From: Verrucomicrobiia bacterium
GTDB taxonomy: Bacteria; Verrucomicrobiota; Verrucomicrobiia; Palsa-1439
Reading direction: 5' to 3'
Length of the DNA stretch: 64,000 nt
Assembly: GCA_049510215.1 (NCBI GenBank)
Contig: JBEKZD010000003.1
Span: forward strand, 24,544 to 88,543
Position numbers and translations under genes: made by a program
The notes under the pieces: model-generated
Database searches by the model: none
Seen by the model: only the letters and a program-made list of their open reading frames with translations
What the model was told of the DNA's origin: nothing
Shown here: piece by piece, positions 2,805 to 59,880 of the stretch
Layout: the number at the start of each line of letters is the position of its first letter
Position numbering within the stretch: the stretch's first letter is position 1

Positions 2805-3595
2805 AATCGCACCGGTATTCCCTTCTGCCTCAAAAACTGTTTTACCTGCAGCACGGTGTACTCGCCAAAGTGGAAAATCGACGCCGCCAGCACCGCGTCG
2901 GCCTTGCCTTCGCCCAGCACGTCGGCCATGTGTTCCAGAGTTCCCGCGCCGCCGCTGGCAATAACCGGAATCGACACCGCTTCGCTGACCGCCCGCGTCA
3001 ACTCGACGTCGTAGCCGCGCTTTGTCCCATCCGTGTCCATGCTTGTCAACAGGATTTCGCCCGCCCCGAGAGCTTCCACGCGACGCGCCCACTCGATGGC
3101 ATCAAGCCCCGTGGGTTTCCGGCCGCCATGCGTGAATACTTCCCAGCGGGAGGCGCTGGAGTGTTGGAGTGTTGGAGTGTTGGGGTGAATGCGCTTGGCG
3201 TCGATGGCGACCACGATGCACTGACTGCCGAATCGCTCCGCGCCCGCTCGCACCAGGTCCGGATTCTGCACTGCCGCGGTGTTAACGCTGGTCTTGTCAG
3301 CGCCGGCCTTGAGCATCGCACGGACGGCTTCGACGCTGCGAATGCCGCCGCCGACCGTCAGCGGCATGAAACATTCGCTCGCAGTGCGCTCGACCACGTC
3401 GATCATCGTAGCGCGATTCTCGGCGCTGGCCGTGATGTCCAGAAAGACCAATTCATCGGCTCCCTGCCGATCATATTCCTTCGCACACTCAACCGGATCG
3501 CCGGCGTCGCGCAGGTTCAAGAATTTCGTTCCCTTCACCACGCGCCCGCGATCCACATCGAGACATGGAATGATTCGTTTGGCTAACATAGGCAA
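2801..3595 (-). CDS. hisF: imidazole glycerol phosphate synthase, cyclase subunit
   Basis: [20 protein letters not shown]...GGGIRS...VAIDAKR...[20 protein letters not shown]...ASGGAG are canonical HisF motifs. Contains an in-frame octamer tandem repeat at 3157-3187. Confidence 0.9.
3157..3187. repeat. 8-bp tandem repeat (TGGAGTGT x3 plus a degenerate fourth copy) inside the hisF CDS
   Basis: Plus-strand sequence tggagtgt tggagtgt tggagtgt tggggtg. On the minus strand it encodes PNTPTLQHS, lengthening the loop between the AIDAKR and WEVFTHGG segments of HisF. Confidence 0.8.
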
Positions 3596-3676: not shown

Positions 3677-3697
3677 CTGCGCTTCATAGAAGCGCAG
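3677..3697. repeat. perfect 9-bp-stem palindrome CTGCGCTTC-ATA-GAAGCGCAG (copy 1 of 2)
   Basis: An identical 21-mer followed by CTACA recurs at 29867-29887. Confidence 0.7.
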
Positions 3698-4010
3698 CTA
3701 CAACAAACTCCAGACCGTCAATGTAGGGGCGCTTCTGTGAAGCGCCATCGACCGTCTAATCACTCGTCGGCCCGGCGTTTCGCTTCTGTCGGTCGCCGCC
3801 GCCTTCTCAGTTCCCTTCGCCGCGACGCTGGCCACGCTCTTGTTGGTCGCGTCTCTCCTCGCCTTTGGGCGGCTGACTGTAGCGTCTGATTTGTTTGGCG
3901 AGGCGGTGACACTCAGCGGGGGCGGTGTTGAGGAGGCGCGGTTCGGGCACGCCGTGCTTGCTCGCGTAGTCGGTCCTGCCCCTGACGATTCTGAGTGAGG
4001 CGGACTGTTG

Positions 4011-7427: not shown

Positions 7428-7535
7428 GCGCTGGTTAAGAAGTCTATGAAACTTCCCACGTCAGCGTCAATCGCCCGGCGGCGGGCCCGGCGGTCGCGTC
7501 CTACCACGGCGCATCAAATGAGATGTGACAGAGCA

Positions 7536-14593: not shown

Positions 14594-15718
14594 TCAGCTG
14601 GCTTTCTTCAACGCACCGAGTTTGCGCAGCGTGGCCAGCGCTTCGGCCGCGTAATCCTTGTCGAGTTTCTGCTTCCGGATCCATTCAACGTACTCGCGAA
14701 CACTGTCACGCGGCGTTTTGGTCGGTTGCCAGCCGAGCCGTTGCAGTTTGGAAATATCCGACACGCTGTGCCGCGTGTCGCCGACACGGTACTCCCCCGT
14801 GATGCTGGGCTTGAACTCCTTGCCCAACACCTCCGCGACGATCCGCGCAAACTCCAGTACCGTGTAGCCGCGTCCGCCGCCGACGTTGAACACTTCGAAA
14901 TTCGCCTCGTCGCGTTCGAGAATGAGCAAATTGGCGCGGGCGACATCGGAGACGTTCACGTAATCGCGGAGTTGCTGGCCGTCCTCAAACACGCTGGGCG
15001 GCTGGCCTTGGAGCATCTGCAGTGTGAAAATGCGCAGTACGCCGGAGTAGGCGTTGCGAAACGACTGACGCGAACCTTGCACGATCGAGTAGCGCATCGC
15101 GGCGCTGGGAATCCCGTAGTTCCTACCCAGCGCGATCGCCATCAACTCCTGCGAGTATTTGGCTATAGAATACTGGTTCCTCGGATTCGCGTGCGTCTCG
15201 AGCAGCGGCAGCGGCTTGATTGCGCCGCCACACTTTGGACAAACCGGTTCCCACAAACCGTTCGCCAGCCGTTGCGGATCCCGGCCGTCGGGAAACACTT
15301 CACCATTCTTGGCGCATCGGTAGCGGCCTTCGCCATAAACGAACTGCGTGCTGGCAACCACAACTTTGCGCACCGGCAGTTTCTCGGCAACGATCAACTC
15401 GTACAGCAGCGCCGTTCCGACGGAGTTGACGTGGAAAAACTGCGAGAAGTTTGGAAGCAAATCTTGGTACGCCGCAAGATGGAATACCACGTCCACTCCG
15501 TTCAGCGCCTTGTGCCAGTCGTCGCGATTGCGTACGTCGCCGTGCACCCGCTCCACGTGCTGCGAGAGCCACGCGGGCCATTCGCTGGTGGAGGCATGCA
15601 CGGGCGTCGTGAGACTGTCCAACGCGCGCACGTCGTAGCCTGCGCGCAGCAGTTCCTCCGCTGTGTGCGATCCGATGAACCCTGCTCCCCCGGTGATGAG
15701 AGCCAACCCTTTGCTCAT
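14594..15718 (-). CDS. NAD-dependent epimerase/dehydratase (extended SDR) with an inserted CxxC...CPKC zinc ribbon
   Basis: Rossmann fold (ITGGAGFIGSH) and catalytic YxxxK (YSIAKY). An unusual ~40-aa insertion carries RYRCAKNG...CPKCGG. Its stop abuts the GT2 start. Confidence 0.8.
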   Translation of the reverse strand: MSKGLALITGGAGFIGSHTAEELLRAGYDVRALDSLTTPVHASTSEWPAWLSQHVERVHGDVRNRDDWHKALNGVDVVFHLAAYQDLLPNFSQFFHVNSVGTALLYELIVAEKLPVRKVVVASTQFVYGEGRYRCAKNGEVFPDGRDPQRLANGLWEPVCPKCGGAIKPLPLLETHANPRNQYSIAKYSQELMAIALGRNYGIPSAAMRYSIVQGSRQSFRNAYSGVLRIFTLQMLQGQPPSVFEDGQQLRDYVNVSDVARANLLILERDEANFEVFNVGGGRGYTVLEFARIVAEVLGKEFKPSITGEYRVGDTRHSVSDISKLQRLGWQPTKTPRDSVREYVEWIRKQKLDKDYAAEALATLRKLGALKKAS

Positions 15719-15850
15719 GGCGAAATCGTTAAAAGGGTTAAAAGGTCAAGAAGGTTAAAATCGTTAAAACGGGTAAAAGGTGAAGACACGCCAACACGCA
15801 CAATCCACCTGCTAACTGTTTTAACCTTTCTAACGATTTTAACGATTCTC
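15719..15850. repeat. intergenic short-tandem-repeat hairpin (GTTAAAAGG direct copies followed by CCTTTTAAC-type inverted copies)
   Basis: cgttaaaagggttaaaaggtcaagaaggttaaaatcgttaaaacgggtaaaagg ... ctgttttaacctttctaacgattttaacgatt. Confidence 0.7.
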
Positions 15851-16444
15851 CCCTTTCAGCTTTTCGTACAGGTAACCGGTGATGATGTGATCCAGGATCA
15901 TATGAACATCTTCGACAGGACCGTAGCCATCGGATGGAACAATAAACGCCACGTCAGCCAGCTTCGCCAGTTTGCCGCCACCGAAACCGGTCAAGCCGAC
16001 CACGCGAACGCCCATTTGCTTCGCGGCCTCAACGGCGGCGAGGACGTTCGGCGAATTACCGGACGCCGAGATCGCGACAAGCAGGTCGCCAGCCCGCGCC
16101 AGGTTCTTCAGCGGCTCGCTGAAGATGTGGTTGTAGTCAGTGTCGTTGGCCCACGCGGTCATTAGCGAGACGTTATCGGTGAGCGCGATAACGCGGAAAC
16201 GCTTCCGCCCCGACGAGCCTTCCTTGTCGGGGTTGTGGCCCAGCGTGCCTTTGCACAAATCGTTCATCATGTGCGACGCCGTCGCCGCGCTGCCGCCGTT
16301 GCCAATGACAAAAATCTGTTTACCGGCCGTGTGCGCCGCTTCAATGGCTTCCACCGTGCGATCCACTGCATCGAGTGGCAGCCGATCCAAAACCGCTTTC
16401 AGTCCGTCAACGTACTTCCGCGCATATTCCGAGGCTTTTACCAT
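15839..16444 (-). CDS. gmhA: D-sedoheptulose 7-phosphate isomerase
   Basis: SIS domain (IFVIGNGGSAATASHMMNDL...ALTDNVSLMTAWANDTDY...LVAISASGNSPNVL) matching GmhA. Confidence 0.8.
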   Translation of the reverse strand: MVKASEYARKYVDGLKAVLDRLPLDAVDRTVEAIEAAHTAGKQIFVIGNGGSAATASHMMNDLCKGTLGHNPDKEGSSGRKRFRVIALTDNVSLMTAWANDTDYNHIFSEPLKNLARAGDLLVAISASGNSPNVLAAVEAAKQMGVRVVGLTGFGGGKLAKLADVAFIVPSDGYGPVEDVHMILDHIITGYLYEKLKGENR

Positions 16445-16509
16445 AATTTTATCACCACGAAGCTCACGAAGAGCACGAAGTCTTCATGGACTTCGTGTCC
16501 TTCGTGGTT
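16445..16509. repeat. intergenic short-tandem-repeat hairpin (CACGAAG x3, then CTTCGTG x2)
   Basis: caccacgaagctcacgaagagcacgaagtcttcatggacttcgtgtccttcgtggtt. Confidence 0.7.
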
Positions 16510-17490
16510 CTAATACCGTTGCATGTTGAACACAACCCGGCTACCGCCGCGTTCGAGCCGAAACGGCATCTCGCGCAGGTTGGAAAGCGCCTGCCGCACC
16601 GCTTGGCGTTTGTCGCTCGGCACGCAGAGCAGGAAAAATCCGCCACCACCGGCGCCGGAAATTTTGCCGCCGAGCGCGCCCGCTTTCACTGCCCGCTCAT
16701 ATATCTTATCCATTTCGTTGTTGCTGATCGACTGCGCCAGCTTCCGTTTAGCCTCCCACCCCTGATGCAACAGTCGCCCCAACCCTTGGACGTCCCCCGT
16801 CTCAATGATCTGGCGCGCTTCCTGCGCTTGCCGCGCCATCGCGCGCAATACGTCCAACTTCCCGCCGATGTTCGACTTCTGCTCGGAGAGAATCGTGGCG
16901 GCGCTGCGGGTCCTGCCCGTGTAAAACAGCATGAGCATGTTGTCCATGTCCTCAAGAACTGCGCGGGACATCTTCACGGCGTTCACCTTGATGTCGGGGC
17001 CCGGCCCGAACTGAAAGCAGCGCAGGCCGCCGTACGCTGCGATGTACTGGTCTTGCACGCCGATTGGCTTCTTCAGAATCTCGATTTCGATCTCACACGC
17101 CTCGCGCGCCAATTGCTCGGTCGTCGGGGTTTCGTCCACGAGGTGGTACAAGGCGTTGAGAACGCCGACCGTCACGCTGCTGGACGAACCCAGGCCTGAA
17201 CCCTCGGCGGGAATGTCGGAAAGGAAGGAAATCTCCACTGCTTTCGTCACGCCGACCTTGCGCATCGCCTCGCGCACGAGTTCGTGCTCCAGTTGGTCCA
17301 CGGAATCAACGATCTCCTTCTTCGAGTAACTGACGTAAATCTTGTCGTCGAATCGCTCCTTGACAATGCAGTAAACAAACTTGTCGATCGCCGAGCTGAC
17401 GACGCAGCCGCCGTGCTTTTCAAAGAAATCGCGGAAATCCGTGCCACCGCCGGCAAACGACACGCGCAAGGGTGTCTGGGTGATGATCAT
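16510..17490 (-). CDS. hddA: GHMP kinase, D-glycero-alpha-D-manno-heptose 7-phosphate kinase-like
   Basis: MIITQTPLRVSFAGGGTDF... and the GHMP ATP-binding motif PAEGSGLGSSSSVTV. Overall similarity to HddA. Start trimmed to MIITQ (17490). Confidence 0.65.
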   Translation of the reverse strand: MIITQTPLRVSFAGGGTDFRDFFEKHGGCVVSSAIDKFVYCIVKERFDDKIYVSYSKKEIVDSVDQLEHELVREAMRKVGVTKAVEISFLSDIPAEGSGLGSSSSVTVGVLNALYHLVDETPTTEQLAREACEIEIEILKKPIGVQDQYIAAYGGLRCFQFGPGPDIKVNAVKMSRAVLEDMDNMLMLFYTGRTRSAATILSEQKSNIGGKLDVLRAMARQAQEARQIIETGDVQGLGRLLHQGWEAKRKLAQSISNNEMDKIYERAVKAGALGGKISGAGGGGFFLLCVPSDKRQAVRQALSNLREMPFRLERGGSRVVFNMQRY

Positions 17491-17581
17491 GGCCGGAATG
17501 GAGTACTGGGGAATTGGAGCACTGGAGTACAGGGACAAACTTCTTTCCCACATCTCCACTCTCCATCACTCCACAACTCCA
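17491..17581. repeat. intergenic short-tandem-repeat hairpin (GGAGTACTGG-type direct copies, then CCATCACTCC inverted copies)
   Basis: ggaatggagtactggggaattggagcactggagtacaggg ... ctccactctccatcactccacaactccatcactccatcactcc. The related motif TGGAGT also occurs in the hisF repeat and at 19160-19200. Confidence 0.7.
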
Positions 17582-18298
17582 TCACTCCATCACTCCTTCC
17601 TCGTAGTCTTTCTGCGCCTTGGCTAATCGCTCGGGCGTGCCGACATCCTGCACGTATGCCTCTGGTTTCATCGCGTACAACGGTTTCCTCTCCGCCAGCA
17701 GTTTGGGAAACAAATCCTTCCCGAAGTCATAAAACTGACCCGCGGAAATCTCGTTCAACACTTGCGGCTCGACCACAAAAATACCAGCACTAATGAGGTT
17801 TGTCGAAACCTGTTTTGGATCGGGCTTTTCGATGAACCGCAAGACTCGCCCCGCCGCATCCGTCTCCACTACCCCACCCGTCCACGGCTCAGGCGACTCG
17901 AATAAGGCGATCGTCGCCAATGCTTTCCGCGCGCGGTGAAACTCCAGCAGCGGCGCGAACCGGATGCGCACGAGATTGTCCCCGTAAAACACGATGAACG
18001 GGCCATCGCGCAGCAAATGCTCCATCTTTTTTACCGCGCCGGCCGTGCCCAGCAGCTTCGGTTCAAGCGAGTAGGTGATCGCTACACCAAACTTGCTCCC
18101 GTCCCCGAAATAGCTCGTGATCTTTTCTGGCATGTAGTGGAGGTTGATGATGAGCTCACTAATCCCCTGCTCGCGAAACAACTCGATGTGGTGCTGCAAC
18201 ACCGGCTTGCCGCCGATCGGCACCATCACTTTGGGCACATCCAGCCCCAGCGACCGCAACCGCGTCCCCAACCCCGCCGCGAGGATAAAGGCTTTCAT
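17582..18298 (-). CDS. hddC: D-glycero-alpha-D-manno-heptose 1-phosphate guanylyltransferase-like nucleotidyltransferase
   Basis: MKAFILAAGLGTRLRSLGLDVPKVMVPIGGKPVL...YFGDGSKFGV...LGTAGAV is the NTP-transferase fold, sized like HddC (238 aa). Confidence 0.7.
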   Translation of the reverse strand: MKAFILAAGLGTRLRSLGLDVPKVMVPIGGKPVLQHHIELFREQGISELIINLHYMPEKITSYFGDGSKFGVAITYSLEPKLLGTAGAVKKMEHLLRDGPFIVFYGDNLVRIRFAPLLEFHRARKALATIALFESPEPWTGGVVETDAAGRVLRFIEKPDPKQVSTNLISAGIFVVEPQVLNEISAGQFYDFGKDLFPKLLAERKPLYAMKPEAYVQDVGTPERLAKAQKDYEEGVME

Positions 18299-18470
18299 GG
18301 AGAGGACGGCAATGAGGTTAAAAAGGTTGAAGAAGTTAAAGAAGTTGAAGAAGTAAAAAGCGTTAGACAGATTGAGAACGTTGAAACTCTGAAGTGAGCG
18401 TGTGGCCGGCGGTCTTTAACCCTTTCAACCACTTTAACCGTTTTAACCTCTTTAACGGTTTCGCCGATCT
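18299..18470. repeat. intergenic short-tandem-repeat hairpin (GTTAAAGAAG/GTTGAAGAAG direct copies, then CTTTAACC inverted copies)
   Basis: ggttaaaaaggttgaagaagttaaagaagttgaagaagtaaaaag ... ctttaaccctttcaaccactttaaccgttttaacctctttaacggtt. Confidence 0.7.
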
Positions 18471-19073
18471 TCATTGCCGCTCCCTCAAATACCGGGACAA
18501 AACCGCCCACGCCTTTTGCAGCGCCTTCGCGCGATGGCTGATTCGGTTCTTCACGTCAGGCGACAGTTCTCCGAACGTCTTTACCTGCCCGTCGGCAATG
18601 AAGAGCGGGTCGTAACCGAAACCGCCTCCGCCGCGTTCCTCCTCGATGATCGTGCCATTGCAGATGCCCTCGACCGTCTCGACCAACCCGTTTTCGTCCG
18701 CAATCGCGGCGACGCAACGAAACCGCGCGGCGCGTTTTTCCATCGCTACGCCTTTCAACAATCCCAACAACTTCTTGTTGTTCTCGTGATAGCTTCCGTC
18801 GTCGCCTGCGAACCGCGCCGAGCGCACACCCGGTTCGCCGTTGAGCGCGTCCACTTCGAGTCCCGTGTCGTCGGCAAGCGTCAACATCCGGGCCGCCTTC
18901 GCCGTCTCGACCGCCTTCTTGACGGCGTTGTCCCGAATCGTCGCGCCGTCCTCGTCGATTTGCGGCAATCCCTTGACGTCCGCCGCCGAGACGACTTCCA
19001 ACTTCAAGTCAGCCAGAAGCGCCTGAATCTCCTTCAACTTGTCCTTGTTCCGCGTCGCTACCAAAACTTGCAT
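18471..19073 (-). CDS. rdgB: non-canonical purine NTP pyrophosphatase (dITP/XTP pyrophosphatase)
   Basis: MQVLVATRNKDKLKEI...ADDTGLEVDALNGEPGVRSARFAG...GFGYDPLF are Ham1/RdgB motifs. Confidence 0.85.
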   Translation of the reverse strand: MQVLVATRNKDKLKEIQALLADLKLEVVSAADVKGLPQIDEDGATIRDNAVKKAVETAKAARMLTLADDTGLEVDALNGEPGVRSARFAGDDGSYHENNKKLLGLLKGVAMEKRAARFRCVAAIADENGLVETVEGICNGTIIEEERGGGGFGYDPLFIADGQVKTFGELSPDVKNRISHRAKALQKAWAVLSRYLRERQ

Positions 19074-19321
19074 GGGCGGGGATTATAGTTGCGCCTGTGA
19101 AAAAATGAAGGATAGATTGCGAGCTGCGACAAATGGGGCGCTGGGGCATTGCAGTGATGGAGTACTGGATTACGCCGCCATCGCTCCACTGCTCAGGCGT
19201 CATCGTATTCTCAATGTTGGGTAGTGTCCTGATTTGCAGTTTGGAGGGACGCGCTCCGTCGCGTCCGTTCGCGAAATGCGGCCACGACAGAGCGTGGCCC
19301 TCCAGATTAGGACACTGCCCA

Positions 19322-20512
19322 ATGTTGAACCAGCTTTACATTCTCTACCTCGTGTCGTTGTTGATGGACATGAGCGTGGCAGGGGTGTCGTTTGCGATCA
19401 GCCGACGCGCCGCCGAGCTCGGCGCCAGCGCGTCGGAACTCGGCTGGCTGGCGGCGGTGTGGATCGGCGTGTACGGCGCGCTGGTGCTCCTGACAGGCCA
19501 CCTGTCGGACCGGGTAGGCCGTCGCAAGCTGGCCGTCATCGGTTGTCTCATTGCGTCGAGCATGACGTTGATTTGTTCGTTCACGACGCGCGTGCCGTTG
19601 CTGCTCTGGTTCAGCGCGGGAATCGGCGCCGGCATCGCGTGTTTCTGGCCGTCGATCATCGCGTGGCTCGGCGAAGGATTGAGCGGCGCGCAATTGGCGA
19701 AACGGTTGACCACTTTCGGCGTGGCATGGAACGCCGGTCTCCTCTTGGGTTTCGGCTGCACCGGAGTCATTTTCAAGCACTGGCCGCAGCCGGCATTCTA
19801 TGCGCCGGCAGGCGTGATCTTGCTCATTGCCGCGCTGTTGTTCATGCATGTTGAAGGTAGGGCTCGACCGCCGGGCGAGCTGAACGACTCGGACGGCCCG
19901 GCGGTCCGTCCCTACCAAAAACCTCACGTGCCGGCCGGTCGTGGATTCCGCAAAACGGCCTGGCTGGCGCTGTTCGCGACGAACTTCGCGCTCAACGGCA
20001 CAGCCGCGCTGTTCCCGCAACTGGCGACGCATCTCGGCATCAGCGCTGACGTGCACGGTGCATTGTTGGCAGCGGGACGCGGTGCCGCCCTGGCGGCATT
20101 TGTCGCACTGCAACTGCTGACGTTCTGGCGAACGCGGCTGTGGCCATTGTGGGTGGCGCAGGCGTGTTGCGCAACCAGCATCGTGTGGATCGGCCTGGCT
20201 AACGCGACGTGGATGTTCGCAACGGCGTGGGTGATCGGCGGCGTGGTATCAGGTTACGCGTATCAGGCGAGCATCTACTTCACGCTCGAAGAGATGAGTG
20301 AAAAAGGCAAAGGCAGCGGCTTCCACGAAGCGATGCTCGGCAGCGGGATGTTTTTCGGGCCGATGTTGGCGGGCTGGGTCGGCAACAATCACGGGTTGCG
20401 CACCCCGTACTTGTTCTGCGCCGCGGCGCTGCTGGCGCTCATCGTGGCTCAGATGATTCTTGTCTTTTGGAGACGCACCGCAGCCGCGAACGCCATCCTC
20501 CGCCACGACTGA
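19322..20512 (+). CDS. MFS transporter
   Basis: Twelve-TM-like hydrophobic pattern with the MFS signature GHLSDRVGRRK. Start trimmed to MLNQLYILY (19322). Contains an in-frame MITE-like insertion at 19856-19916. Confidence 0.7.
   Translation: MLNQLYILYLVSLLMDMSVAGVSFAISRRAAELGASASELGWLAAVWIGVYGALVLLTGHLSDRVGRRKLAVIGCLIASSMTLICSFTTRVPLLLWFSAGIGAGIACFWPSIIAWLGEGLSGAQLAKRLTTFGVAWNAGLLLGFGCTGVIFKHWPQPAFYAPAGVILLIAALLFMHVEGRARPPGELNDSDGPAVRPYQKPHVPAGRGFRKTAWLALFATNFALNGTAALFPQLATHLGISADVHGALLAAGRGAALAAFVALQLLTFWRTRLWPLWVAQACCATSIVWIGLANATWMFATAWVIGGVVSGYAYQASIYFTLEEMSEKGKGSGFHEAMLGSGMFFGPMLAGWVGNNHGLRTPYLFCAAALLALIVAQMILVFWRRTAAANAILRHD
19856..19916. mobile_element. MITE-like palindromic element, family 2 (GGTAGGG...CGGACGGCCCGGCGGTCCGTCCCTACC), inside the MFS CDS
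   Basis: Terminal inverted repeats GGTAGGG/CCCTACC plus internal hairpin GGACGG...CCGTCC. Near-identical copies at 41051-41123 and 31312-31378. Here it encodes a loop (...[12 protein letters not shown]...). Confidence 0.65.
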
Positions 20513-21670: not shown

Positions 21671-21836
21671 AGGTGTTAGCAAGACCGTTTTGACTCGTGG
21701 GAGCGACATTCCTGTCGCGATCTTTCGCCGTGATTCCGGTCGGGGCAGGAATGCCCCTCCTACAAGGTCGTCCGCAGCATCTTCGTGATTTCGGCTGGCG
21801 TTCGCGGCGGGCTGTCGGTATTTTCCCGCCCACCGA

Positions 21837-29795: not shown

Positions 29796-29802
29796 TGTAG
29801 TG

Positions 29803-29851
29803 GCGCTTCCCTGCCCCGAAGGCTTTCGGGGTGAACGAAGCGCCGCGAATT
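29803..29851. repeat. nested GC-rich hairpin downstream of the M16 gene (GGCGCTTC...CCCCGAA-ggct-TTCGGGG...GAAGCGCC)
   Basis: The inner 18-mer CCCCGAAGGCTTTCGGGG recurs inside the FGGY-kinase CDS at 43779-43797. There is no U-tract, so terminator function is uncertain. Confidence 0.5.
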
Positions 29852-29866
29852 AACAACTGCGCTTCA

Positions 29867-29887
29867 TAGAAGCGCAGCTACACCGAG
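29867..29887. repeat. perfect palindrome CTGCGCTTC-ATA-GAAGCGCAG (copy 2 of 2)
   Basis: Identical to 3677-3697, including the following CTACA. Confidence 0.7.
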
Positions 29888-29896
29888 AGAATCAAC

Positions 29897-31302: not shown

Positions 31303-31311
31303 CGCCTTCGG

Positions 31312-31378
31312 GGTAGGGTGCGCTCGCTGAGCGTGCCGCTCCGGAGGTTCGGGCAGCCCGGCGGTCTGCCCCTACCAA
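31312..31378. mobile_element. MITE-like element, family 2 copy (GGGGTAGGG...CCCCTACC)
   Basis: ggggtagggtgcgctcgctgagcgtgccgctccggaggttcgggcagcccggcggtctgcccctacc. Confidence 0.6.
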
Positions 31379-32285: not shown

Positions 32286-32509
32286 CGCCGGGTGTAAGGC
32301 AATCAGTTGGCAGCGGTCGTGGAGAAAGTGCGGCGGCAATTATTTCGTAACGAGACCTGACCCGATTACTGCTCCAGCCGTGCCCGCTCAGGCCGCCGTG
32401 TTCTACAATGGCAACTAGGTCTTCAGCGGCGGGTCGATTCTCGCGTGGCGAACACAGACATCCTCTTAGCGTTCTATTAGGGGAATGTCCATGGTCTGAC
32501 AATTGGGTA

Positions 32510-32539
32510 TTGACAAGTCCCTTATTATTCGGTATAAAT
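32510..32539 (+). promoter_or_regulatory. sigma70-like promoter (TTGACA, 17 nt, TATAAA) upstream of the first small HTH gene
   Basis: ttgacaagtcccttattattcggtataaat. The consensus is borrowed from proteobacteria, so function in this lineage is unproven. Confidence 0.4.
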
Positions 32540-32591
32540 CACACGCACAGTGAATATGGAAGGTGTGACTTAAAACTAAGGAGGAAGCTCA

Positions 32592-32813
32592 ATGGAAGGC
32601 GATGTGCTTAAGAGGATCGACCGCAAGCTTTCAGCCGTCATGGCGCTTATGGTCGAAGCGCGAGAAACTCGAACGGATGCGGAGTTGGATAAGATCGAGC
32701 TACTTTTGGGGCGGTGTGGGTTGAGCGCACCCGAAATATCGGAAATCGTGGACAAATCGACCGAAGCAGTACGGAAGGCGATTCAAAGGGGACGGAAAGC
32801 GAAACGGACATAG
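32592..32813 (+). CDS. small HTH protein (paralog 1 of 4), low-GC island
   Basis: 73 aa with a strong SD (GGAGGAAGC). C-terminal HTH-like SAPEISEIVDKSTEAVRKAIQRGRKAKR. Confidence 0.5.
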   Translation: MEGDVLKRIDRKLSAVMALMVEARETRTDAELDKIELLLGRCGLSAPEISEIVDKSTEAVRKAIQRGRKAKRT

Positions 32814-32822
32814 GAATGTAAT

Positions 32823-33038
32823 ATGGACGAACAAACAAAAACGGAAGCATTGCTGGAGGAAGCGGTTCGTCTGCTTGCCATCCTGGCCAAGCGAGGCATG
32901 AATCAAACGGCGACAATCGCTGAGCTAAGTAATGCAGGCTTTCAGCCGAAGCGGATTGCAGAGCTTCTCGGGACGACGGCGAACACTGTAAGCGTCACCC
33001 TGGCCACATCGCGAAAGCGGAAGAAGGGTAAGCGGTAG
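32823..33038 (+). CDS. small HTH protein (paralog 2 of 4)
   Basis: 71 aa. C-terminus IAELLGTTANTVSVTLATSRKRKKGKR is a sigma-70 region-4/LuxR-like HTH. Confidence 0.5.
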   Translation: MDEQTKTEALLEEAVRLLAILAKRGMNQTATIAELSNAGFQPKRIAELLGTTANTVSVTLATSRKRKKGKR

Positions 33039-33064
33039 ACGTAGGTAAATCCGGATGAAAGTAG

Positions 33065-33283
33065 GTGGTTGGAATGAGTAAAGCCAAAAGCGATAATGAG
33101 CTATTAGAGGAAATCGGCGGGAAACTAGATCTAGTAATCGCGTTGCTTGCGATTCAAGGTAAGGAGCAGGGTGCACAGATTAAGATCCTGTATTCTCTCG
33201 GCTTTGATTCGAACACGATTGGCCGCTTGGTTGGCATGTCAGGAACCGCAGTCAGAGTGAGGAAATTCCGCGGACGTAAGTGA
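33065..33283 (+). CDS. small HTH protein (paralog 3 of 4)
   Basis: C-terminus IGRLVGMSGTAVRVRKFRGRK. N-terminal LLEEIGGKLDLVIALLAIQGKEQ shares the pattern seen in paralogs 1, 2 and 4. Confidence 0.5.
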   Translation: MVGMSKAKSDNELLEEIGGKLDLVIALLAIQGKEQGAQIKILYSLGFDSNTIGRLVGMSGTAVRVRKFRGRK

Positions 33284-33301
33284 GGTTCCGCGTCAGGCAT
33301 C

Positions 33302-34105
33302 ATGGACTTACAGGAGATGATTCTTCGCGGGCGCTTTATTTTTTCGGGGGCTGGCCAGCGCCTCAGGGTATATGAACTGGTAAACGGTAAGCGGAACACT
33401 GCCGAAATCGCCAGACTTGTTAAGCGTCATGTGAACAACGTCCGTCGGGATCTTACGATTATCAATGATGCAGAGCTGATCCAACCAAAGATGAAAAATG
33501 GTCAGTCGTTAGAGTCGAATGGCTTTCCGGTCTACGAAAAAGTGCCGCTTGGTAGGACTGTCCCCCTCAGCTACTTCGAGGGGCCGCCGGCACGCCTTCC
33601 CGCTTCCTCGGTAACGGCCACAGCGAAATCATCTTCGAAGGGTTATGTGACCAAGAAGCCCTCCGCTCTCGGGCTGCCAAGCGAGACGGAAATTCTGGAT
33701 ATCTGTAGGAACGGCGAGGATCAGATTTCCGAGTTCAAGGGACAAGGAACTGACTTTAATAAGATTAGCCGTGAGGTGGCCGCAATGCTCAATACTCGGG
33801 AGGGAGGCAGGGTTTTTTACGGAATCGACGACGCGGGCACAATTCAAGGCAGCGACATTTCTCGGCAACAATTCGACCAAGGGCTGCAGAATTCTATTCG
33901 AAATACAATTTCTCCGGCTGCGACGGTGAGACTACACTCCGTGTCCGTCGTGGGCTCGGAGGTCCTTGTGGTCATCGTGCCTCCGTGGAACAGAAGTGAT
34001 GTATATCAATTCGAAGGGCGTGTTCTCCTTCGAAAGGGCACAAATGTCTTCTTCGCGAAACCGGAAGAAAGCAAGAAACTTCACAAGGGGATTTACGTCG
34101 TCTGA
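33302..34105 (+). CDS. winged-helix HTH plus Schlafen-like AlbA_2 domain protein
   Basis: N-terminal ArsR/MarR-like HTH (NTAEIARLVKRHVNNVRRDL). C-terminal ISEFKGQGTDFNKISREVAAMLNTREGGRVFYGIDDAGTIQG...VLVVIVPPW matches the AlbA_2 (PF04326) consensus. Confidence 0.6.
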   Translation: MDLQEMILRGRFIFSGAGQRLRVYELVNGKRNTAEIARLVKRHVNNVRRDLTIINDAELIQPKMKNGQSLESNGFPVYEKVPLGRTVPLSYFEGPPARLPASSVTATAKSSSKGYVTKKPSALGLPSETEILDICRNGEDQISEFKGQGTDFNKISREVAAMLNTREGGRVFYGIDDAGTIQGSDISRQQFDQGLQNSIRNTISPAATVRLHSVSVVGSEVLVVIVPPWNRSDVYQFEGRVLLRKGTNVFFAKPEESKKLHKGIYVV

Positions 34106-34128
34106 CATGAGAGGAGGTTATTCTACCA

Positions 34129-34326
34129 ATGCCGAAGACTAAGAGAAACTCCACGCGAGAAGATCCAGCACTCAAAGAGTTGCAGCGGATCAGAAATCTG
34201 CTGATGCTTTGCTTAATTAAGTTGGGGGCCGATTCAAAGGAGCTTGATTTGGCTGTCGGGATGGGGTCCAGCAACATTCGAGCGATGCTCCCGATCAAGC
34301 AAATTGAGAAAATTCTAAAGGACTAG
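34129..34326 (+). CDS. small HTH protein (paralog 4 of 4)
   Basis: 65 aa with SD GAGGAGG. LKELQRIRNLLMLCLIKLGADSKELDLAVGMGSSNIRAM follows the same pattern as paralogs 1-3. Confidence 0.45.
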   Translation: MPKTKRNSTREDPALKELQRIRNLLMLCLIKLGADSKELDLAVGMGSSNIRAMLPIKQIEKILKD

Positions 34327-34396
34327 TCACGCTGCAATAAGGCGGTTCAAGGAGTTCTTGGGCGAGGCGTTGCTTCCCTGTTCTCTCCCGTCCGGC

Positions 34397-35884
34397 CTAG
34401 ACCTTCCCGGTTTCGAGGCCGAAGTAATCTTTCGCGTTGCCGAAGCAGATGTTGCGGACCATCGTGCCGAGCATTTTCATGTCGCGGGGTAGTTCGCCGT
34501 TGACGACGTCGCGGCCGAGGAGGTTGCAGAGCAGACGGCGGAAGTATTCGTGCCGCGAATAACTCAGGAAACAGCGCGAGTCGGTCAGCATGCCGACGAA
34601 CCGGCTGAGCAGACCGAGGTTGGACAGCGCGTTGATCTGCCATTCCATCGCTTCCTTCTGATCGAGAAACCACCAGCCGCTGCCGAACTGGATTTTGCCG
34701 GGCACGCTGCCGTCCTGGAAATTGCCGAGCATCGTGGCGAAGGCGTAGTTATCGGCGGGATTCAAGTTGTAGAGGATCGTTTTCGGGAAACGATTGGTCG
34801 AGTCGAGCCGGTCGAGATAACGCGCCAATGCCTCGGCCTGCGGCCAGTCGCCGATCGAGTCGAACCCCGTGTCGGCGCCGAGCGTGCGCATCAGGCGTGT
34901 GTTGTTGTTGCGCAACGCGCCGAGGTGCAATTGCATGACCCAGCCGCGCGCGGCGTAGAGTTCGCCCACAAACAGCAGCATGAAGCTGCGGAACTTGTTG
35001 GCCTCCGCTGGGGAGACCTTCTTTCCACTGCGGGCGTCTGCGAAAATGCGCGCCGCCTCGGCTTCGGTGCAATCGTCGGCATACACGTGATTCAACCCGT
35101 GATCGGAAAGGCGGCAGCCGTTGTCGTGAAAGTAACGATGCCGTTTCCTGAGCGCGTCGAGAAAGCCGCTCAAACTGCGGCATTCCACGCCACTCACCTG
35201 CCCGAGCTTGTCCACCCAGGCGTTGAACGCGGCTGGCTGGTCCACCGTCAACGCCTTGTCGGGCCGGAACGCCGGGTACACCCGCGTACCCAGTGGTTTG
35301 GTGGCGCGGGCGTCCCTGCCTGCGGATTGTGATTCGCGGATCTTCCGGTGATGTTCGAGCGAGTCGGTCGGATCGTCCGTCGTGCAGACGACCGCGACGC
35401 GATTTGTTTCAAGGATCGTGTGCACGGGCATTTTGGACAGCTTGGCGTTGGCCGTATCCCAAATCTCTTTCGCGGTGGACTCGTCAAGCAACTTGGTGAT
35501 GCCGAAGAACCGTTTCAATTCGAGGTGCGTCCAGTGATAGAGCGGATTGCGCAGCGTGTACGGCACCGTACGGGCGAAGGCGAGGAACTTCTCCCAGTCG
35601 CTGGCGTCGCCGGTGCAATACTTCTCCGACACGCCGTTGGAACGCATCGCGCGCCACTTGTAATGATCGCCCCCCAGCCAGACTTCATAAAGGTTGCGGA
35701 ATACTTTGTTGGCCGCAATCTGGTCGGGCGGCAGATGCGTGTGATAATCGAAGATCGGCTCGTGCTTGGCGTGGTCGTGGTACAACTCCCGCGCCACGTC
35801 ATTCTGCAGCAGAAAATCATCCGTAAGAAAAGTTCTGGTCGTCTTGGTTGTCTTGGCCGCTGGTTTGGTCTTGGTGCGTTTCAT
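34397..35884 (-). CDS. uxaC: glucuronate isomerase
   Basis: DFLLQNDVARELYHDHAKHEPIFDYHTHL is the UxaC N-terminal signature. Full-length conservation, with a short Lys/Thr-rich N-terminal extension. Confidence 0.85.
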   Translation of the reverse strand: MKRTKTKPAAKTTKTTRTFLTDDFLLQNDVARELYHDHAKHEPIFDYHTHLPPDQIAANKVFRNLYEVWLGGDHYKWRAMRSNGVSEKYCTGDASDWEKFLAFARTVPYTLRNPLYHWTHLELKRFFGITKLLDESTAKEIWDTANAKLSKMPVHTILETNRVAVVCTTDDPTDSLEHHRKIRESQSAGRDARATKPLGTRVYPAFRPDKALTVDQPAAFNAWVDKLGQVSGVECRSLSGFLDALRKRHRYFHDNGCRLSDHGLNHVYADDCTEAEAARIFADARSGKKVSPAEANKFRSFMLLFVGELYAARGWVMQLHLGALRNNNTRLMRTLGADTGFDSIGDWPQAEALARYLDRLDSTNRFPKTILYNLNPADNYAFATMLGNFQDGSVPGKIQFGSGWWFLDQKEAMEWQINALSNLGLLSRFVGMLTDSRCFLSYSRHEYFRRLLCNLLGRDVVNGELPRDMKMLGTMVRNICFGNAKDYFGLETGKV

Positions 35885-35904: not shown

Positions 35905-36040
35905 GCAGTAAATCCGAAATCCGAATCTCGAAATCCGAAAATGAAAATCCGACCAGCGTGGCCCTATCCCTGCCGTCGTTTGTAAAATTGTAGTTTTCCT
36001 GACTTCCACTTGTTTCGGATTTTGTGCTTCGAGTTTTCCC
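35905..36040. repeat. short-tandem-repeat hairpin upstream of uxaC (AAATCCGA x5 direct, TCGGATTT inverted)
   Basis: gtaaatccgaaatccgaatctcgaaatccgaaaatgaaaatccga ... gtttcggattttgtg. Confidence 0.65.
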
Positions 36041-39816: not shown

Positions 39817-39991
39817 GTGAAATCTCCTTTCCAATCCACAGGGTTGTCACCCTGATCCCGCCGTAGCGGGAGAATGGTCTCTGTTGTTTCTGTCCAGACG
39901 ACTGAGATTTGCCGTCGCGCGACAGACGGCCCGCAGCGGTTTCGCTCCGCTCAGAATGACAAGTGGACAGGATATACGATGAATCAGGATG

Positions 39992-41038: not shown

Positions 41039-41050
41039 TCGACGTATTGT

Positions 41051-41123
41051 GGTAGGGCGCGACCGCCGGGCGCGCCGCTTCTGTTGTTCTCGGTTTCGGA
41101 CGGCCCGGCGGTCCGTCCCTACC
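41051..41123. mobile_element. MITE-like element, family 2 copy
   Basis: ggtagggcgcgaccgccgggcgcgccgcttctgttgttctcggtttcggacggcccggcggtccgtccctacc. Confidence 0.65.
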
Positions 41124-41128
41124 AACGG

Positions 41129-47773: not shown

Positions 47774-47788
47774 GTTACTGTTCCTCAG

Positions 47789-47850
47789 TTTGTAGCCGCG
47801 AAACTCTTTCGCGGCCCTTTTCCCGCCGCGAATACGATTCGCGGCTACAA
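47789..47850. repeat. palindromic intergenic element TTGTAGCCGCGAA...TTCGCGGCTACAA (copy 1 of 2)
   Basis: ttgtagccgcgaaactctttcgcggcccttttcccgccgcgaatacgattcgcggctacaa. Two GCCGCGAA-N5-TTCGCGG hairpins inside 13-nt terminal inverted repeats. Second copy at 59817-59880. Confidence 0.75.
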
Positions 47851-47866
47851 AATCAGAGCGACGGTG

Positions 47867-52877: not shown

Positions 52878-53078
52878 CGCAAATCCAATCACAGTCAATC
52901 ATAAAATACCGGACGCTAACCGCTGATTACGCCGAATCCGCGCAATCCGTGAAATCCGCGGTTTAACTCATTCTTCGGCCGCCGGTATTAACCACTGATT
53001 ACGCCGATGACGCTGATCGGCCGAATCCGTGCGATCTGCGAAATCCGTGGTTTAATCCATCTCCTGACTGCCGGGCCT
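52878..53078. repeat. ~95-bp repeat family, two tandem copies (left flank of the R-M/GHKL island)
   Basis: Unit approximately ...CTGATTACGCCGA(A/T)..CGCTGAT.GGCCGAATCCG.GC.ATC.G.GAAATCCG.GGTT.AA.TCATT.CT..GCCGCCGGTATTAACC. Further copies at 57555-57690, 58405-58575 and 58940-59030. Confidence 0.75.
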
Positions 53079-53414
53079 GCCCGCGCGAGGGGTGGATTCC
53101 TTTTCTTCGTGCTTGAAAGTCATCGCCCTGAAGCACAGACTCGCGGTGATGGCGGCAATGTTTCAGGAAATCAAACAGTCCCTCCATCGGCTGTACGGCG
53201 AAGATGCTCACCCGTGGATGATGAGGTTGAGCAGCAGGAGCACTGGCACCGTCGTCGAACGCGACAAAGCCAGCGAAGGTTTGCTCGCTGCCGGCGACGA
53301 ACGCATGGAAGACATGATCGCCTTCCGCGACCCCGCCAACGGCTTGAAGCCGTCCGGCACCAGTGAATCAGATGACGCTTGGTATTTCGTACAAGCGATC
53401 TGAAAGGACGTAGC

Positions 53415-54047
53415 ATGGCAATCAAAGATGAAATTCGGACGATGGCCAACCGGTACGCTGCGGAGCTCAAAACCAGCATTGATGCGCGCGTTGTCGAGAT
53501 GGAGCAGGATGACCGCTCCCACGTCCTTATTTACCGAGTGCTTGGGATTAGTGAACCGGAAGGCAAGCTCATTGACGTTTATCAGAACAAGGGACGGTTC
53601 GTTTACAAGTATGCTGGCTCATTCCTTGAAGAGGCTGCAAAGCTTTGCTTCAAGAAGAACTTCCCGCAGTCGGGATCGCTACGCGTCCCAAACACCCACG
53701 GGCAACGACCGAAAACATTTGAGATTGATTGCTTGGTTGGCACTGACGCTTTGGAAATCAAGTGGAGGGATGCAACGACAGACGGCGATCATATCACGAA
53801 AGAGCACACTCGGATAAAGGCGATATGCGACGCTGGGTACAAGCCAATCCGAGTGATGTTCTATTATCCGAATCGTGACCAAGCGATCCGGATTCAGCAA
53901 GCGTTGGAGAGTATATACAAGGGCGTGCATGGAGAGTATTATTACTCAGACACTGCATGGGATTATGTGAAACGGCGAACAGAAATTGACCTGCTCGGAA
54001 TCCTTAAGCAACTTGCTGGGGAAAGGAGCGCACAACGTGAGCAGTGA
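53415..54047 (+). CDS. putative type II restriction endonuclease (PD-(D/E)xK-like)
   Basis: FEIDCLVGTDALEIKWRD fits a D...ExK catalytic motif. About 210 aa. The 3' end overlaps the methyltransferase start by 11 nt. Low GC. Family not identified. Confidence 0.4.
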   Translation: MAIKDEIRTMANRYAAELKTSIDARVVEMEQDDRSHVLIYRVLGISEPEGKLIDVYQNKGRFVYKYAGSFLEEAAKLCFKKNFPQSGSLRVPNTHGQRPKTFEIDCLVGTDALEIKWRDATTDGDHITKEHTRIKAICDAGYKPIRVMFYYPNRDQAIRIQQALESIYKGVHGEYYYSDTAWDYVKRRTEIDLLGILKQLAGERSAQREQ

Positions 54048-55245: not shown

Positions 55246-55264
55246 CCCATCGCAGCATCATGCC

Positions 55265-57554: not shown

Positions 57555-57690
57555 TATCCGCTCAATCAGCGAAATCCGTGGTTCAACTCATTTCCTAACC
57601 GCCGGTATATTAACCGCGGATCACGCCGATGACGCTGATTGGCCGAATCCGCACAATCTGTGAAATCCGTGGTTCAATTCAGAGAAGGGG
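57555..57690. repeat. ~95-bp repeat family, about 1.5 copies (right flank of the island)
   Basis: gcgaaatccgtggttcaactcatttcctaaccgccggtatattaaccgcggatcacgccgatgacgctgattggccgaatccgcacaatctgtgaaatccgtggttcaa. Confidence 0.75.
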
Positions 57691-58400: not shown

Positions 58401-58404
58401 TTCT

Positions 58405-58575
58405 TTGACCGCGGATTACGCTGATGACGCTGATTGCGCCGAATCGGCGCCCTCATTGGTTATCCGTGCTATCTGCGTTATCCGTGGTTCGTTCCCTCTG
58501 CGTTCATTTCTTTAACTGCGGATAACGCTGATTGCGCCGAATCGGCGCAGTCAGTGGTCTGCGCTCCTAATCACG
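58405..58575. repeat. ~95-bp repeat family, two degenerate copies
   Basis: gcggattacgctgatgacgctgattgcgccgaatcggcgc ... gcggataacgctgattgcgccgaatcggcgc. Confidence 0.65.
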
Positions 58576-58937: not shown

Positions 58938-58939
58938 CG

Positions 58940-59030
58940 CATCGCGCGGATAACGATTCGTTATCCGCGCCATCCGCGTGATCCGCGGTTCATTTCTCCG
59001 TCAATTCATTTCCTGGCCGCCGGTGACGCT
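58940..59030. repeat. ~95-bp repeat family, partial copy
   Basis: cgcggataacgattcgttatccgcgccatccgcgtgatccgcggttcatttctccgtcaattcatttcctggccgccggtga. Overlaps the 3' end of the SDR gene at 59001-59801. Confidence 0.6.
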
Positions 59031-59816: not shown

Positions 59817-59880
59817 TTGTAGCCGCGAATCTCATTCGCGGTGAGTGGCAAGAAGCCGCGAAAATGTTTCGCGGCTACAA
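59817..59880. repeat. palindromic intergenic element TTGTAGCCGCGAA...TTCGCGGCTACAA (copy 2 of 2)
   Basis: ttgtagccgcgaatctcattcgcggtgagtggcaagaagccgcgaaaatgtttcgcggctacaa. Confidence 0.75.

Follow-up and report, generated by a model that had tools for sequence, protein, structure and literature searches.

Hairpin spacers of short tandem units in a Verrucomicrobiia heptose operon: probable inserted repeat elements whose architecture recurs beside GxxExxY nuclease genes

Short tandemly repeated repetitive (STRR) sequences consist of short tandem units followed by their complements and fold into hairpins between genes or cistrons, such as those that separate hupS from hupL; their function is unknown (PMC2670836). 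The P6b stems of the Nostoc tRNA-Leu intron are built from heptamers with a TDNGATT (class I) or NNTGAGT motif, and their distribution does not follow phylogeny, with independent replacements and with gain and loss of repeats on both arms (PMC4476775). In Beggiatoaceae, TAACTGA heptamers form abundant intergenic arrays just upstream of start codons, some of which overlap the end of the upstream open reading frame (ORF; PMC4679880), and repetitive extragenic palindromic (REP) elements are known in Verrucomicrobia (PMC3733652). STRR-type hairpins have been noted in bacterial genomes for decades and have no established origin, mobilising enzyme or function. We analysed a 64,000-nucleotide (nt) stretch of contig JBEKZD010000003.1 (the window) from a soil or peat Verrucomicrobium, in which all four spacers of a heptose operon (14594-19073, minus strand) are hairpins of short tandem units. 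We propose that these spacers are, more probably than not, inserted, gene-less hairpin repeat elements, similar to REP elements or to miniature inverted-repeat transposable elements (MITEs), that are tolerated at operon junctions, with the GxxExxY nuclease family as the candidate enzyme. The operon offers a clean setting: four consecutive junctions of one operon are invaded, and empty ancestral sites are available in relatives.

The operon consists of five co-directional genes in the order ham1, nucleotidyltransferase, GHMP kinase, SIS isomerase and epimerase (Table 1). The spacers, numbered here from the epimerase end, lie at 15719-15838 (120 nt), 16445-16509 (65 nt), 17491-17581 (91 nt) and 18299-18470 (172 nt). 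Each is a long imperfect hairpin over its full length, with an arm of tandem units and then their inverted copies. Tandem Repeats Finder (TRF) detected 6.0 copies of GTTAAAAGG (15728-15780) and 3.2 of TTTTAACGA (15819-15847) in spacer 1, 2.8 of CACGAAGAG (16456-16480) in spacer 2, 4.5 of CTCCATCA (17561-17596) in spacer 3, and 4.7 of GTTAAAGAA (18317-18358) and 4.9 of CTTTAACC (18414-18456) in spacer 4. The unit period is 8-10 nt in these four spacers, the TRF arrays having periods of 8-9; a period of 7 was found only in a similar element upstream of uxaC (AAATCCG, 4.4 copies at 35910-35940). The stems are periodic, conserved 7-nt cores being paired and the 1-2-nt linkers mostly unpaired; hairpin 2, for instance, has 2x2 internal loops between its helices, which are 9, 7 and 6 bp long. 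The spacer elements carry terminal inverted repeats, a feature of the MITE type.

The minimum free energy (MFE) of the sense RNA was -33.1, -32.6, -34.0 and -37.1 kcal/mol for spacers 1 to 4, with z-scores of -3.7, -7.7, -3.2 and -3.9, and none of 200 dinucleotide shuffles per spacer folded equally well. The uxaC-upstream element gave a z-score of -3.5 on both strands. A detector of tandem pairs with inverted tandem pairs found 6 clusters in the window versus a mean of 0.65 in Markov shuffles; the version used (7-mers with 1 mismatch) still missed degenerate elements, and versions requiring exact 6-mers, or TRF arrays plus an exact core, were too strict. The folding and the TRF arrays bear out a sequence-only reading of the window, which had described all four spacers and the uxaC-upstream region as tandem units with inverted copies forming hairpins. 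Two of its details need correction: the unit of spacer 3 is the 8-mer TGGAGTNN and not a 10-mer, and the uxaC-upstream hairpin has 4-5 copies on one arm and only 1-2 on the other (Table 1). The related TGGAGTG units that had been pointed out in hisF do form an octamer array, which is direct-only, and those at 19150-19200 do not form a significant hairpin (z-scores of -1.2 and -0.3). The hisF array is in-frame and represents an intragenic copy of a unit type known otherwise from the hairpins.

The hairpins embrace the ends of the neighbouring genes. The 5′ arm of hairpin 1 takes in the last 15 nt of gmhA and provides its TAA stop (GAG AAT CGT TAA), and the end of its 3′ arm directly abuts the epimerase ATG. 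Similarly, the 5′ arm of hairpin 3 includes the last ~19 nt of the nucleotidyltransferase gene (GGAGTGATGGAGTGA) with its stop (GGA GTG ATG GAG TGA), and the 3′ arm ends at the kinase ATG; the stem of hairpin 4 runs from the ham1 stop codon to 3 nt short of the next ATG. Overall, the arms reach up to ~20 nt into the upstream coding sequence and contribute its stop codon, the stems end 0-19 nt upstream of the next ATG, and the downstream genes have no Shine-Dalgarno sequence. Hairpin 5, upstream of uxaC, is followed by a normal GGAGG ribosome-binding site and so links no stop codon to a start codon.

Table 1. Coordinates of the operon genes, hairpins and GxxExxY-associated features in the window
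Feature	Position	Strand	Description
Epimerase	14594-15718	-	Pfam
GmhA-like SIS protein (SIS isomerase, gmhA)	15839-16444	-	Pfam
GHMP kinase (HddA-like)	16510-17490	-	Pfam
Nucleotidyltransferase (HddC-like)	17582-18298	-	Pfam
Ham1	18471-19073	-	Pfam
Hairpin 1 (gmhA-epimerase junction)	15719..15853	-	GTTAAAAGG-type units; MFE -40.6 kcal/mol with coding-sequence end
Hairpin 2 (kinase-gmhA junction)	16449..16513	-	CACGAAG units, 9-nt period; termini AACCAC...GTGGT; z -7.7
Hairpin 3 (nucleotidyltransferase-kinase junction)	17491..17600	-	TGGAGTNN units, 8-mers
Hairpin 4 (ham1-nucleotidyltransferase junction)	18302..18472	-	GTTAAAGAA / CTTTAACC units
Hairpin 5 (uxaE-uxaC spacer)	35905..36029	-	AAATCCG(A) units, 4-5 copies in one arm, 1-2 in the other
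Direct-only array in hisF	3157..3187	-	TGGAGTGT x3.9; adds ...NTPTLQHS... to a protein loop
GxxExxY gene, 128 aa	58554..58937	-	TIGR04256 E 3e-38; PF13366 PDDEXK_3; PD-(D/E)XK nuclease
Tandem-unit hairpin directly upstream of GxxExxY gene	58938..58990	.	CGCGGATCA CGCGGATGG CGCGGATAA ... TTATCCGCG; z -4.9
Two tandem-unit hairpins directly downstream of GxxExxY gene	58401..58564	.	CGCGGATNA / ATCCGYG family; z -5.6, -4.2
Two more CGCGGATNA / ATCCGYG elements, divergent intergenic	52918..53056	.	Termini AACCRC...GYGGTT; z -0.4, -2.5
One partial and one complete CGCGGATNA / ATCCGYG element, convergent intergenic	57570..57676	.	

We compared the operon with orthologous loci, the closest of which are from Verrucomicrobiia metagenome-assembled genomes (MAGs) with kinases 78-91% identical to that of the window. 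At the junctions of eight of these loci (L001, L002, L004, L005, L007-L010), and of several orthologues from metagenomes, neighbouring genes either overlap by 4 nt (ATGA) or stand no more than 11 nt apart. Hairpin spacers were found in only some lineages (the window with L012/L101; L003; L006/L089; L011/L094; L081; L082; L086; L088), and in a tree of concatenated operon proteins the lineages with spacers (the window with L012, L003, L006, L011) branch in among sister lineages that have none. The sequence-only reading had named a lack of conservation in relatives as part of what would refute it, and the spacers are not conserved: most relatives have ATGA overlaps. For spacer 2 the ancestral empty site could be reconstructed as ...GGTATTGA(ATAAT)ATG, i.e. 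...TATTGA(ATAAT)ATG. In the window ...GGTAT is followed by TAGAACCAC...GTGG and then by TGATAAAATTATG, so that a 58-nt foreign insert stands between TAT and the old TGA; the insert supplies its own TAG, and the ancestral TGA stop survives downstream.

Within the species the spacers do not change in length. The exact kinase protein was found on 24 contigs, three of which (from two JGI samples and one ENA sample) we compared closely with the window. One matches it exactly over 5381 nt, and 45 and 53 substitutions separate the other two from it. The length of each of the four spacers is unchanged in all three contigs, i.e. there is no copy-number variation between these strains at ~99% identity, where the earlier reading had proposed to look for it. 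Substitutions in the spacers occur at about twice the coding rate (7-10 per 448 nt versus 32-34 per 4032 nt) and appear near-neutral. Spacer hypermutation, which a comparison of the window with L012 had seemed to indicate, was dropped, because L012 is mosaic and true strain pairs are only ~2-fold faster in spacers. In that mosaic (L012/L101 versus window 17450-19073), identity is 97-98% for Ham1 and the nucleotidyltransferase and 91% for the kinase, and two spacers are unalignable, which suggests recombination with breakpoints at or near hairpin spacers. The spacers are, then, insertions that are stable within the species and patchy between lineages.

Other repeats occupy the same junctions: a GTAG-type REP, a GTCACCCTGAGCG...CGCTCAGAATGAC element, which in one case is nested in the loop of a GTTAAAA hairpin, and a CGTGGGAGCGAC-type element. 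At its junction L086 carries a CACAGAG tandem-unit hairpin with the ends AACCAC...GTGGTT. In L011 (6982-7596; the same locus as L094) an IS200/RAYT-like gene (Y1_Tnp, E 2e-25; RAYT, REP-associated tyrosine transposase) occupies precisely the kinase-gmhA junction, with ordinary small palindromes of the AACCGTTTCAACGGTT type, and no tandem-unit hairpins, on its flanks. The diversity of hairpin repeats at these junctions, together with the Y1 gene, marks the junctions of this operon as general landing sites for hairpin elements. The hddA-gmhA spacer of L091 contains a 596-nt insert at the same junction as the Y1_Tnp gene of L011. A GTCACCCTGA(GCG)...CGCTCAGAATGACAA repeat family occurs in the window (39835-39991 and 2376-2420), in the hddC-hddA spacer of L084 and in the loop of the ham1-hddC hairpin of L081; its nesting in a GTTAAAA hairpin loop suggests that hairpin loops are themselves insertion targets. 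An imperfect palindrome of the CTCGTGGGAGCGAC...GGGGCAGGAATGCCCCTCC type is shared by the window (21694-21766) and the ham1-hddC spacer of L082.

At least two of the spacer unit types, which we call flavours, are dispersed families. Three CACGAAG units at 9-nt spacing were found in more than 120 IMG/VR stretches among the matches listed, with 174 distinct array starts. The type has a conserved terminus, TTTCACCAC...GTGGTGAAA, and among the 174 starts listed the consensus outer terminus is TTTCACCACGAAG, which spacer 2 of the window matches (AACCACGAAGG). Complete CACGAAG hairpins all have the same polarity (23/23), with the purine-rich arm first, and are located between ORFs of either orientation. 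The GTTAAAA flavour occurs at two different junctions, and four or five related genomes have it; the right arm of this flavour is near-identical in L012, L081 and L088, although the flanking proteins are only 75-86% identical to those of the window. At a junction that carries GTTAAAA in the window, L006 has another flavour. Hairpins of TGGAGTNN (TGGAGT) units are also present in unrelated contigs, e.g. L393 and L412. A GTTAAAA x3 scan of IMG/VR returned mostly unrelated AT-rich direct arrays, and an apparent 801-nt cargo proved to be one phage region sampled six times. Beyond the related Verrucomicrobiia, the same architecture was seen in loci labelled Armatimonadaceae, Zhuqueibacterota, Chloroflexi (Viridilinea), Lentisphaerae and Cytophagia, often with CACAAAG or CACAGAG units and ACCAC...GTGGT ends. 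The suggestion of a genome-specific element is thereby refuted, with Armatimonadota, Chloroflexi, Lentisphaerae, Bacteroidota and Gemmatimonadota loci among those that share the architecture; the REP-like label was in the right neighbourhood, as the spacers behave as inserted, dispersed hairpin repeats.

The window itself contains a GxxExxY gene, inserted between two co-directional short-chain dehydrogenase/reductase genes and bordered by tandem-unit hairpins on both sides (Table 1). All hairpins of the window's CGCGGATNA / ATCCGYG family (termini AACCRC...GYGGTT) lie within 6 kb of it. The architecture is thus linked to a specific and very abundant protein family (more than 6000 close homologues), the function of which was listed as 'Unknown' in a 2012 survey of the PD-(D/E)XK superfamily (PMC3424549) and the name of which appears in only a handful of the papers searched. 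A confident AlphaFold model of the protein (predicted local distance difference test score 94) shows a minimal PD-(D/E)XK core, with only generic fold matches, the closest of the Cas4 / lambda-exonuclease type, at template modelling scores of 0.5-0.6; a PDB sequence search with the GxxExxY profile gave no match. Residues D70, K82, E31 and E41 are invariant in 118 GxxExxY sequences.

Tandem-unit arms or hairpins stand directly beside the gene at 18 of 19 distinct GxxExxY loci examined, which span about eight phyla; loci with arms come from Verrucomicrobiota, Gemmatimonadota, Bacteroidota, Fusobacteriota, Calditrichota, Spirochaetota, Ignavibacteriales and Sphingomonas. When arrays were called conservatively with TRF, they were present at 13/26 GxxExxY flanks versus 4.2% of control windows. 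Two arrangements were observed. In one, found in Marinilabilia, L179, Bacteroides finegoldii, Bernardetia, Sphingomonas and Treponema, the gene lies between one left and one right arm. The arms are GTCTGAACCGCTGAT...ATCAGCGGTTCAGAC in L179, and in B. finegoldii TAG is followed by GTTCACCACAGAGG, the gene and CCTCTGTGGTGAAAAAATATG, which is the layout of spacer 2 of the window, in a locus adjacent to radA; the Treponema locus has a single unit per arm. CAC-type arms, as in spacer 2, bracket the gene in B. finegoldii, Bernardetia and Sphingomonas, in the last case between fabD and fabG (TTCACGCGAAGG...CTTCGCGTGAA). The other arrangement, in which complete hairpins without a gene of their own stand on either side of GxxExxY, was seen in the window, L165, L167, both Gemmatirosa paralogues, Caldithrix and a Spirochaetota MAG. 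Gene-carrying forms between the same arms were seen in L175, L179, L438, L440 and L441, and GxxExxY genes often have housekeeping genes on both sides. On two Gemmatirosa replicons the hairpin family reaches at least 40 and at least 28 copies; the first replicon has 2-3 GxxExxY genes, with none detected on the second, and two paralogues have different flavours, GGACTGAAGAA and CGCGGAT. The CAC-type and GATT-type architecture is, therefore, physically tied to GxxExxY genes across phyla.

From these loci we propose as class features arms of tandem 8-11-nt units, the purine-rich arm first, and the outer termini (TT)WACCRC...GYGGTW(AA). Spacer 2 and the elements at 52.9-59.0 kb have all of these; spacers 1, 3 and 4 share the architecture and polarity, and not the termini.

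A model that would account for these observations is as follows. Each element comprises two inverted arms, each a short tandem array of 8-10-nt units, and would belong to one of several dispersed families with different unit sequences that act as selfish DNA of the REP or MITE type and land in non-coding gaps. In a tightly packed operon the stop/start junctions would be the only viable insertion sites. The insert would fold on itself, with the upstream stop and the downstream start at the base of one stem, and the hairpins are probably tolerated at junctions because the stem sets these codons side by side. The last upstream codons would pair with the downstream leader, so that a terminating ribosome would open that leader, preserving the coupling once given by ATGA. 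At least the CAC- and GATT-type flavours would have a gene-carrying form, in which arms bracket, or hairpins flank, a GxxExxY gene. By analogy with REP/RAYT, we hypothesize that GxxExxY proteins mobilise or maintain the hairpins, and we infer that the gene-less hairpins are MITE- or REP-like derivatives. Any influence on the stability or processing of the mRNA would probably be secondary and not what the elements exist for.

In a broader form, which we offer tentatively and regard as doubtful in its entirety, GxxExxY genes and tandem-unit inverted repeats might together make up an undescribed and widespread class of elements, mobile or self-maintaining, that reaches at least eight phyla. The nuclease would recognise or cut its cognate arms; the gene-less hairpins, including the operon spacers and possibly the cyanobacterial STRR and P6b sequences, would be its MITE-like and far commoner offspring; and arm pairing in the mRNA would make insertions into operons non-polar.

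Several observations weigh against the view of the spacers as inserted elements served by GxxExxY. Neither a transposition event nor a target-site duplication nor an excision footprint was observed, and at spacer 2, the sole reconstructable empty site, a target-site duplication of 2 nt or more is absent. Neither the GTTAAAA nor the TGGAGT flavour, which make up three of the four spacers, was found next to a GxxExxY gene, and these spacers are assigned to the element class by architecture only; in the window, CGCGGAT is the one flavour for which the gene stands beside same-flavour arms. GxxExxY is not encoded in any of 205 IMG/VR loci with CACGAAG or GTTAAAA arrays, and no recurrent partner gene family adjoins the CACGAAG arrays in IMG/VR loci. 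The gene could also be a passenger that homes into hairpin loops and not the mobilising enzyme. Furthermore, the comparison sequences are mostly MAGs. Finally, TGGAG-type elements occupy one junction in at least three separate lineages, and the L011 unit TGGAGCGA resembles the ancestral local sequence TGGCAGCGATGA of a sister lineage, which hints at local origin or at insertion guided by microhomology.

Local origin would mean tandem duplication by slippage at the junction, followed by a fold-back template switch that creates the inverted arm (a quasipalindrome); flavours would then differ because the seed sequences differ. The recurrence of TGGAG at one junction and the likeness in L011 to a sister's empty site speak for this, as does the TGGAG unit itself, whose GGAG, TGA and ATG are the hallmark of a coupled junction and which resembles a duplicated GGAG-TGATG. 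So do the difference in units between spacers, the direct-only array in hisF, and the number of units, which differs between lineages down to a one-unit, 39-nt version of hairpin 1 in L082 with the same ...GENR end before the stop. These last points also uphold part of the slipped-strand expansion that had been suggested from the sequence. On the other hand, copy number does not vary within the species, spacer 2 is a clean foreign insertion, and spacers 1, 2 and 4 have no similarity to ancestral junction sequences. The GTTAAAA flavour at two different junctions, with another flavour in L006 at the window's GTTAAAA junction, and the conserved terminus and strict polarity of CACGAAG among the 174 copies listed elsewhere are likewise difficult to reconcile with local origin, which we consider unlikely, if worth keeping in mind. 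Even less probable, in our judgement, is that the hairpins are selected RNA devices, acting as barriers to 3′ exonucleases, as RNase III sites that set heptose-enzyme stoichiometry, or by making downstream translation dependent on termination. Their stable stems (-33 to -48 kcal/mol), which bridge stop and start codons in front of genes without a Shine-Dalgarno sequence, and the identical hairpin length kept across strains would suit such a role, and similar roles have been proposed for the STRR hairpins between hupS and hupL (PMC2670836). Most orthologous operons, however, lack the hairpins, and elements of the same architecture in the window also lie in divergent (52.9-53.1 kb) and convergent (57.5-57.7 kb) gaps, besides co-directional ones. 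Nor is the sense strand favoured: it was more stable in 7/13 elements and the antisense strand in 6/13.

The substitution patterns point the same way. Of 11 variable spacer sites between strains, 6 are unpaired, 4 break a pair, 1 forms a wobble and none is compensated. Six TGGAG elements from the same junction align in their arms via the conserved cores (TGGAG / CTCCA), with unalignable loops; compensatory change was found in 2/27 pairs of this alignment, and the covariation term was unfavourable (+2.58). We thus found no evidence of RNA structure under selection. Rfam gave no match at the gathering score over the whole window, and at E<=1 only chance microRNA and long non-coding RNA hits. The proposal that the spacers are termination sites finds no support, as a scan found neither terminator-like nor promoter-like sites in any spacer, there is no U-tract, and start codons follow the 3′ arms directly. 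DNA bending by A-tracts was rejected because spacers 2 and 3 have none. Repeats are prone to mis-assembly, and GTTRRR-like cores in two spacers recall the attC core site. We nevertheless regard an assembly artefact, or an integron attC-type recombination site, as extremely improbable. Three independent assemblies carry all four spacers at identical length, and homologous elements lie at the same junctions in other MAGs; the order of the cores, GTTAAAA...TTTTAAC, is the reverse of attC RYYYAAC...GTTRRRY, the cores are tandemly repeated, two spacers have none, and the genes between the spacers belong to a housekeeping pathway.

Insertion of gene-less hairpin elements thus remains the reading that we favour, and it is the association with GxxExxY that most deserves further work. 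A causal link would define a new type of selfish element, give GxxExxY proteins a function, and explain how such elements enter essential operons (fabD-fabG of Sphingomonas is an example) with no polar damage. Should the link prove to be a correlation and no more, the hairpins still matter in practice: they create apparent 'long spacers' inside operons, and they mislead the annotation of starts and stops, since stop codons and C-terminal residues are newly provided by the arms.

Other features of the window were noted in passing. The divergent region between ham1 and a major facilitator superfamily transporter gene (19211-19328) contains an inverted repeat with 29-nt arms, 79% complementary, and a 60-nt loop, plus a GC-rich palindrome; the transporter probably starts near 19322, not 19133. 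Two islands of low GC content (about 0.50-0.54) probably serve defence or are mobile: 32286-34400, with a Schlafen/AlbA_2 gene and several small ORFs, and 53404-57211, with an N6/N4 DNA methylase, a HATPase_c_3 protein and then a DUF2283-like small gene. Classical GTAG-tagged REP pairs, a family separate from the spacer hairpins, lie at 47784-47856, 59817-59880, 3679-3745 and 29796-29896 and are of two kinds, TTGTAGCCGCGAA...TTCGCGGCTACAA and TGTAGCTGCGCTTC...GAAGCGCCCCTACA. Members of a third palindrome family, GGTAGGG(N)CGACCGCCGGGC...GCCCGGCGGTC(N)CCCTACC, are at 7470-7510, 19856-19916, 31310-31370 and 41050-41124, two copies apparently inside or at the ends of ORFs.

Among described systems, several are clearly set apart from the spacers. 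Rho-independent terminators have a GC-rich stem and a U-tract, a combination absent from every spacer, and attC sites have single RYYYAAC...GTTRRRY cores in that order, with intI and a cassette array; in the spacers the cores are reversed and repeated, or missing, and housekeeping genes lie in between, although no search was aimed at intI itself. The Beggiatoaceae TAACTGA arrays, like those described here, adjoin start codons and in some cases overlap the end of the upstream gene; however, they are direct repeats without hairpins, with 1 inverted case among 170 sets (PMC4679880). MITEs are closer: the spacers have a terminal inverted repeat and a short internal region, and look like gene-less derivatives of a longer gene-carrying form. 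They may differ from MITEs in target-site duplication, of which none was seen at the one empty site; in addition, GxxExxY is not a known transposase, and the arms are internally tandem-repetitive.

REP elements and their RAYT enzymes provide the closest parallel in genomic context. As in that system, dispersed extragenic hairpins far outnumber a small associated gene that is itself flanked by repeats, and the elements lie between operon genes and are high-copy and extragenic (the CACGAAG and Gemmatirosa families). In contrast to REP elements, they carry no GTAG or CGTC tag, ending in AACCAC/GTGGT (spacer 2) or in plain unit sequences, and their stems are 55-170 nt with 2-6 tandem units per arm, whereas a REP is a single 20-40-nt palindrome. 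The associated gene encodes a PD-(D/E)XK nuclease, whereas RAYT is an HUH/Y1 enzyme; no RAYT was found in the window (best tblastn E 0.14 with the L011 Y1_Tnp protein).

STRR and P6b sequences provide the closest parallel in structure. Like STRR, the elements are arrays with complements that form intergenic or intercistronic hairpins, and the TDNGATT motif of P6b has the same core as NNNGATT, the commonest unit core beside GxxExxY genes. The units here are mostly 8-11 nt, compared with 7 in STRR; the hosts are Verrucomicrobiota and many other phyla, whereas STRR is cyanobacterial; and no protein is linked to STRR in the descriptions cited here (PMC2670836, PMC4476775). A connection of STRR with GxxExxY would be drawn by analogy, as the loci compared include no cyanobacterial one. 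Taken together, the defining features of neither system hold for these elements, which resemble STRR and P6b in architecture and evolutionary behaviour, and REP/RAYT in genomic ecology, and which belong to a barely described, multi-phylum class.

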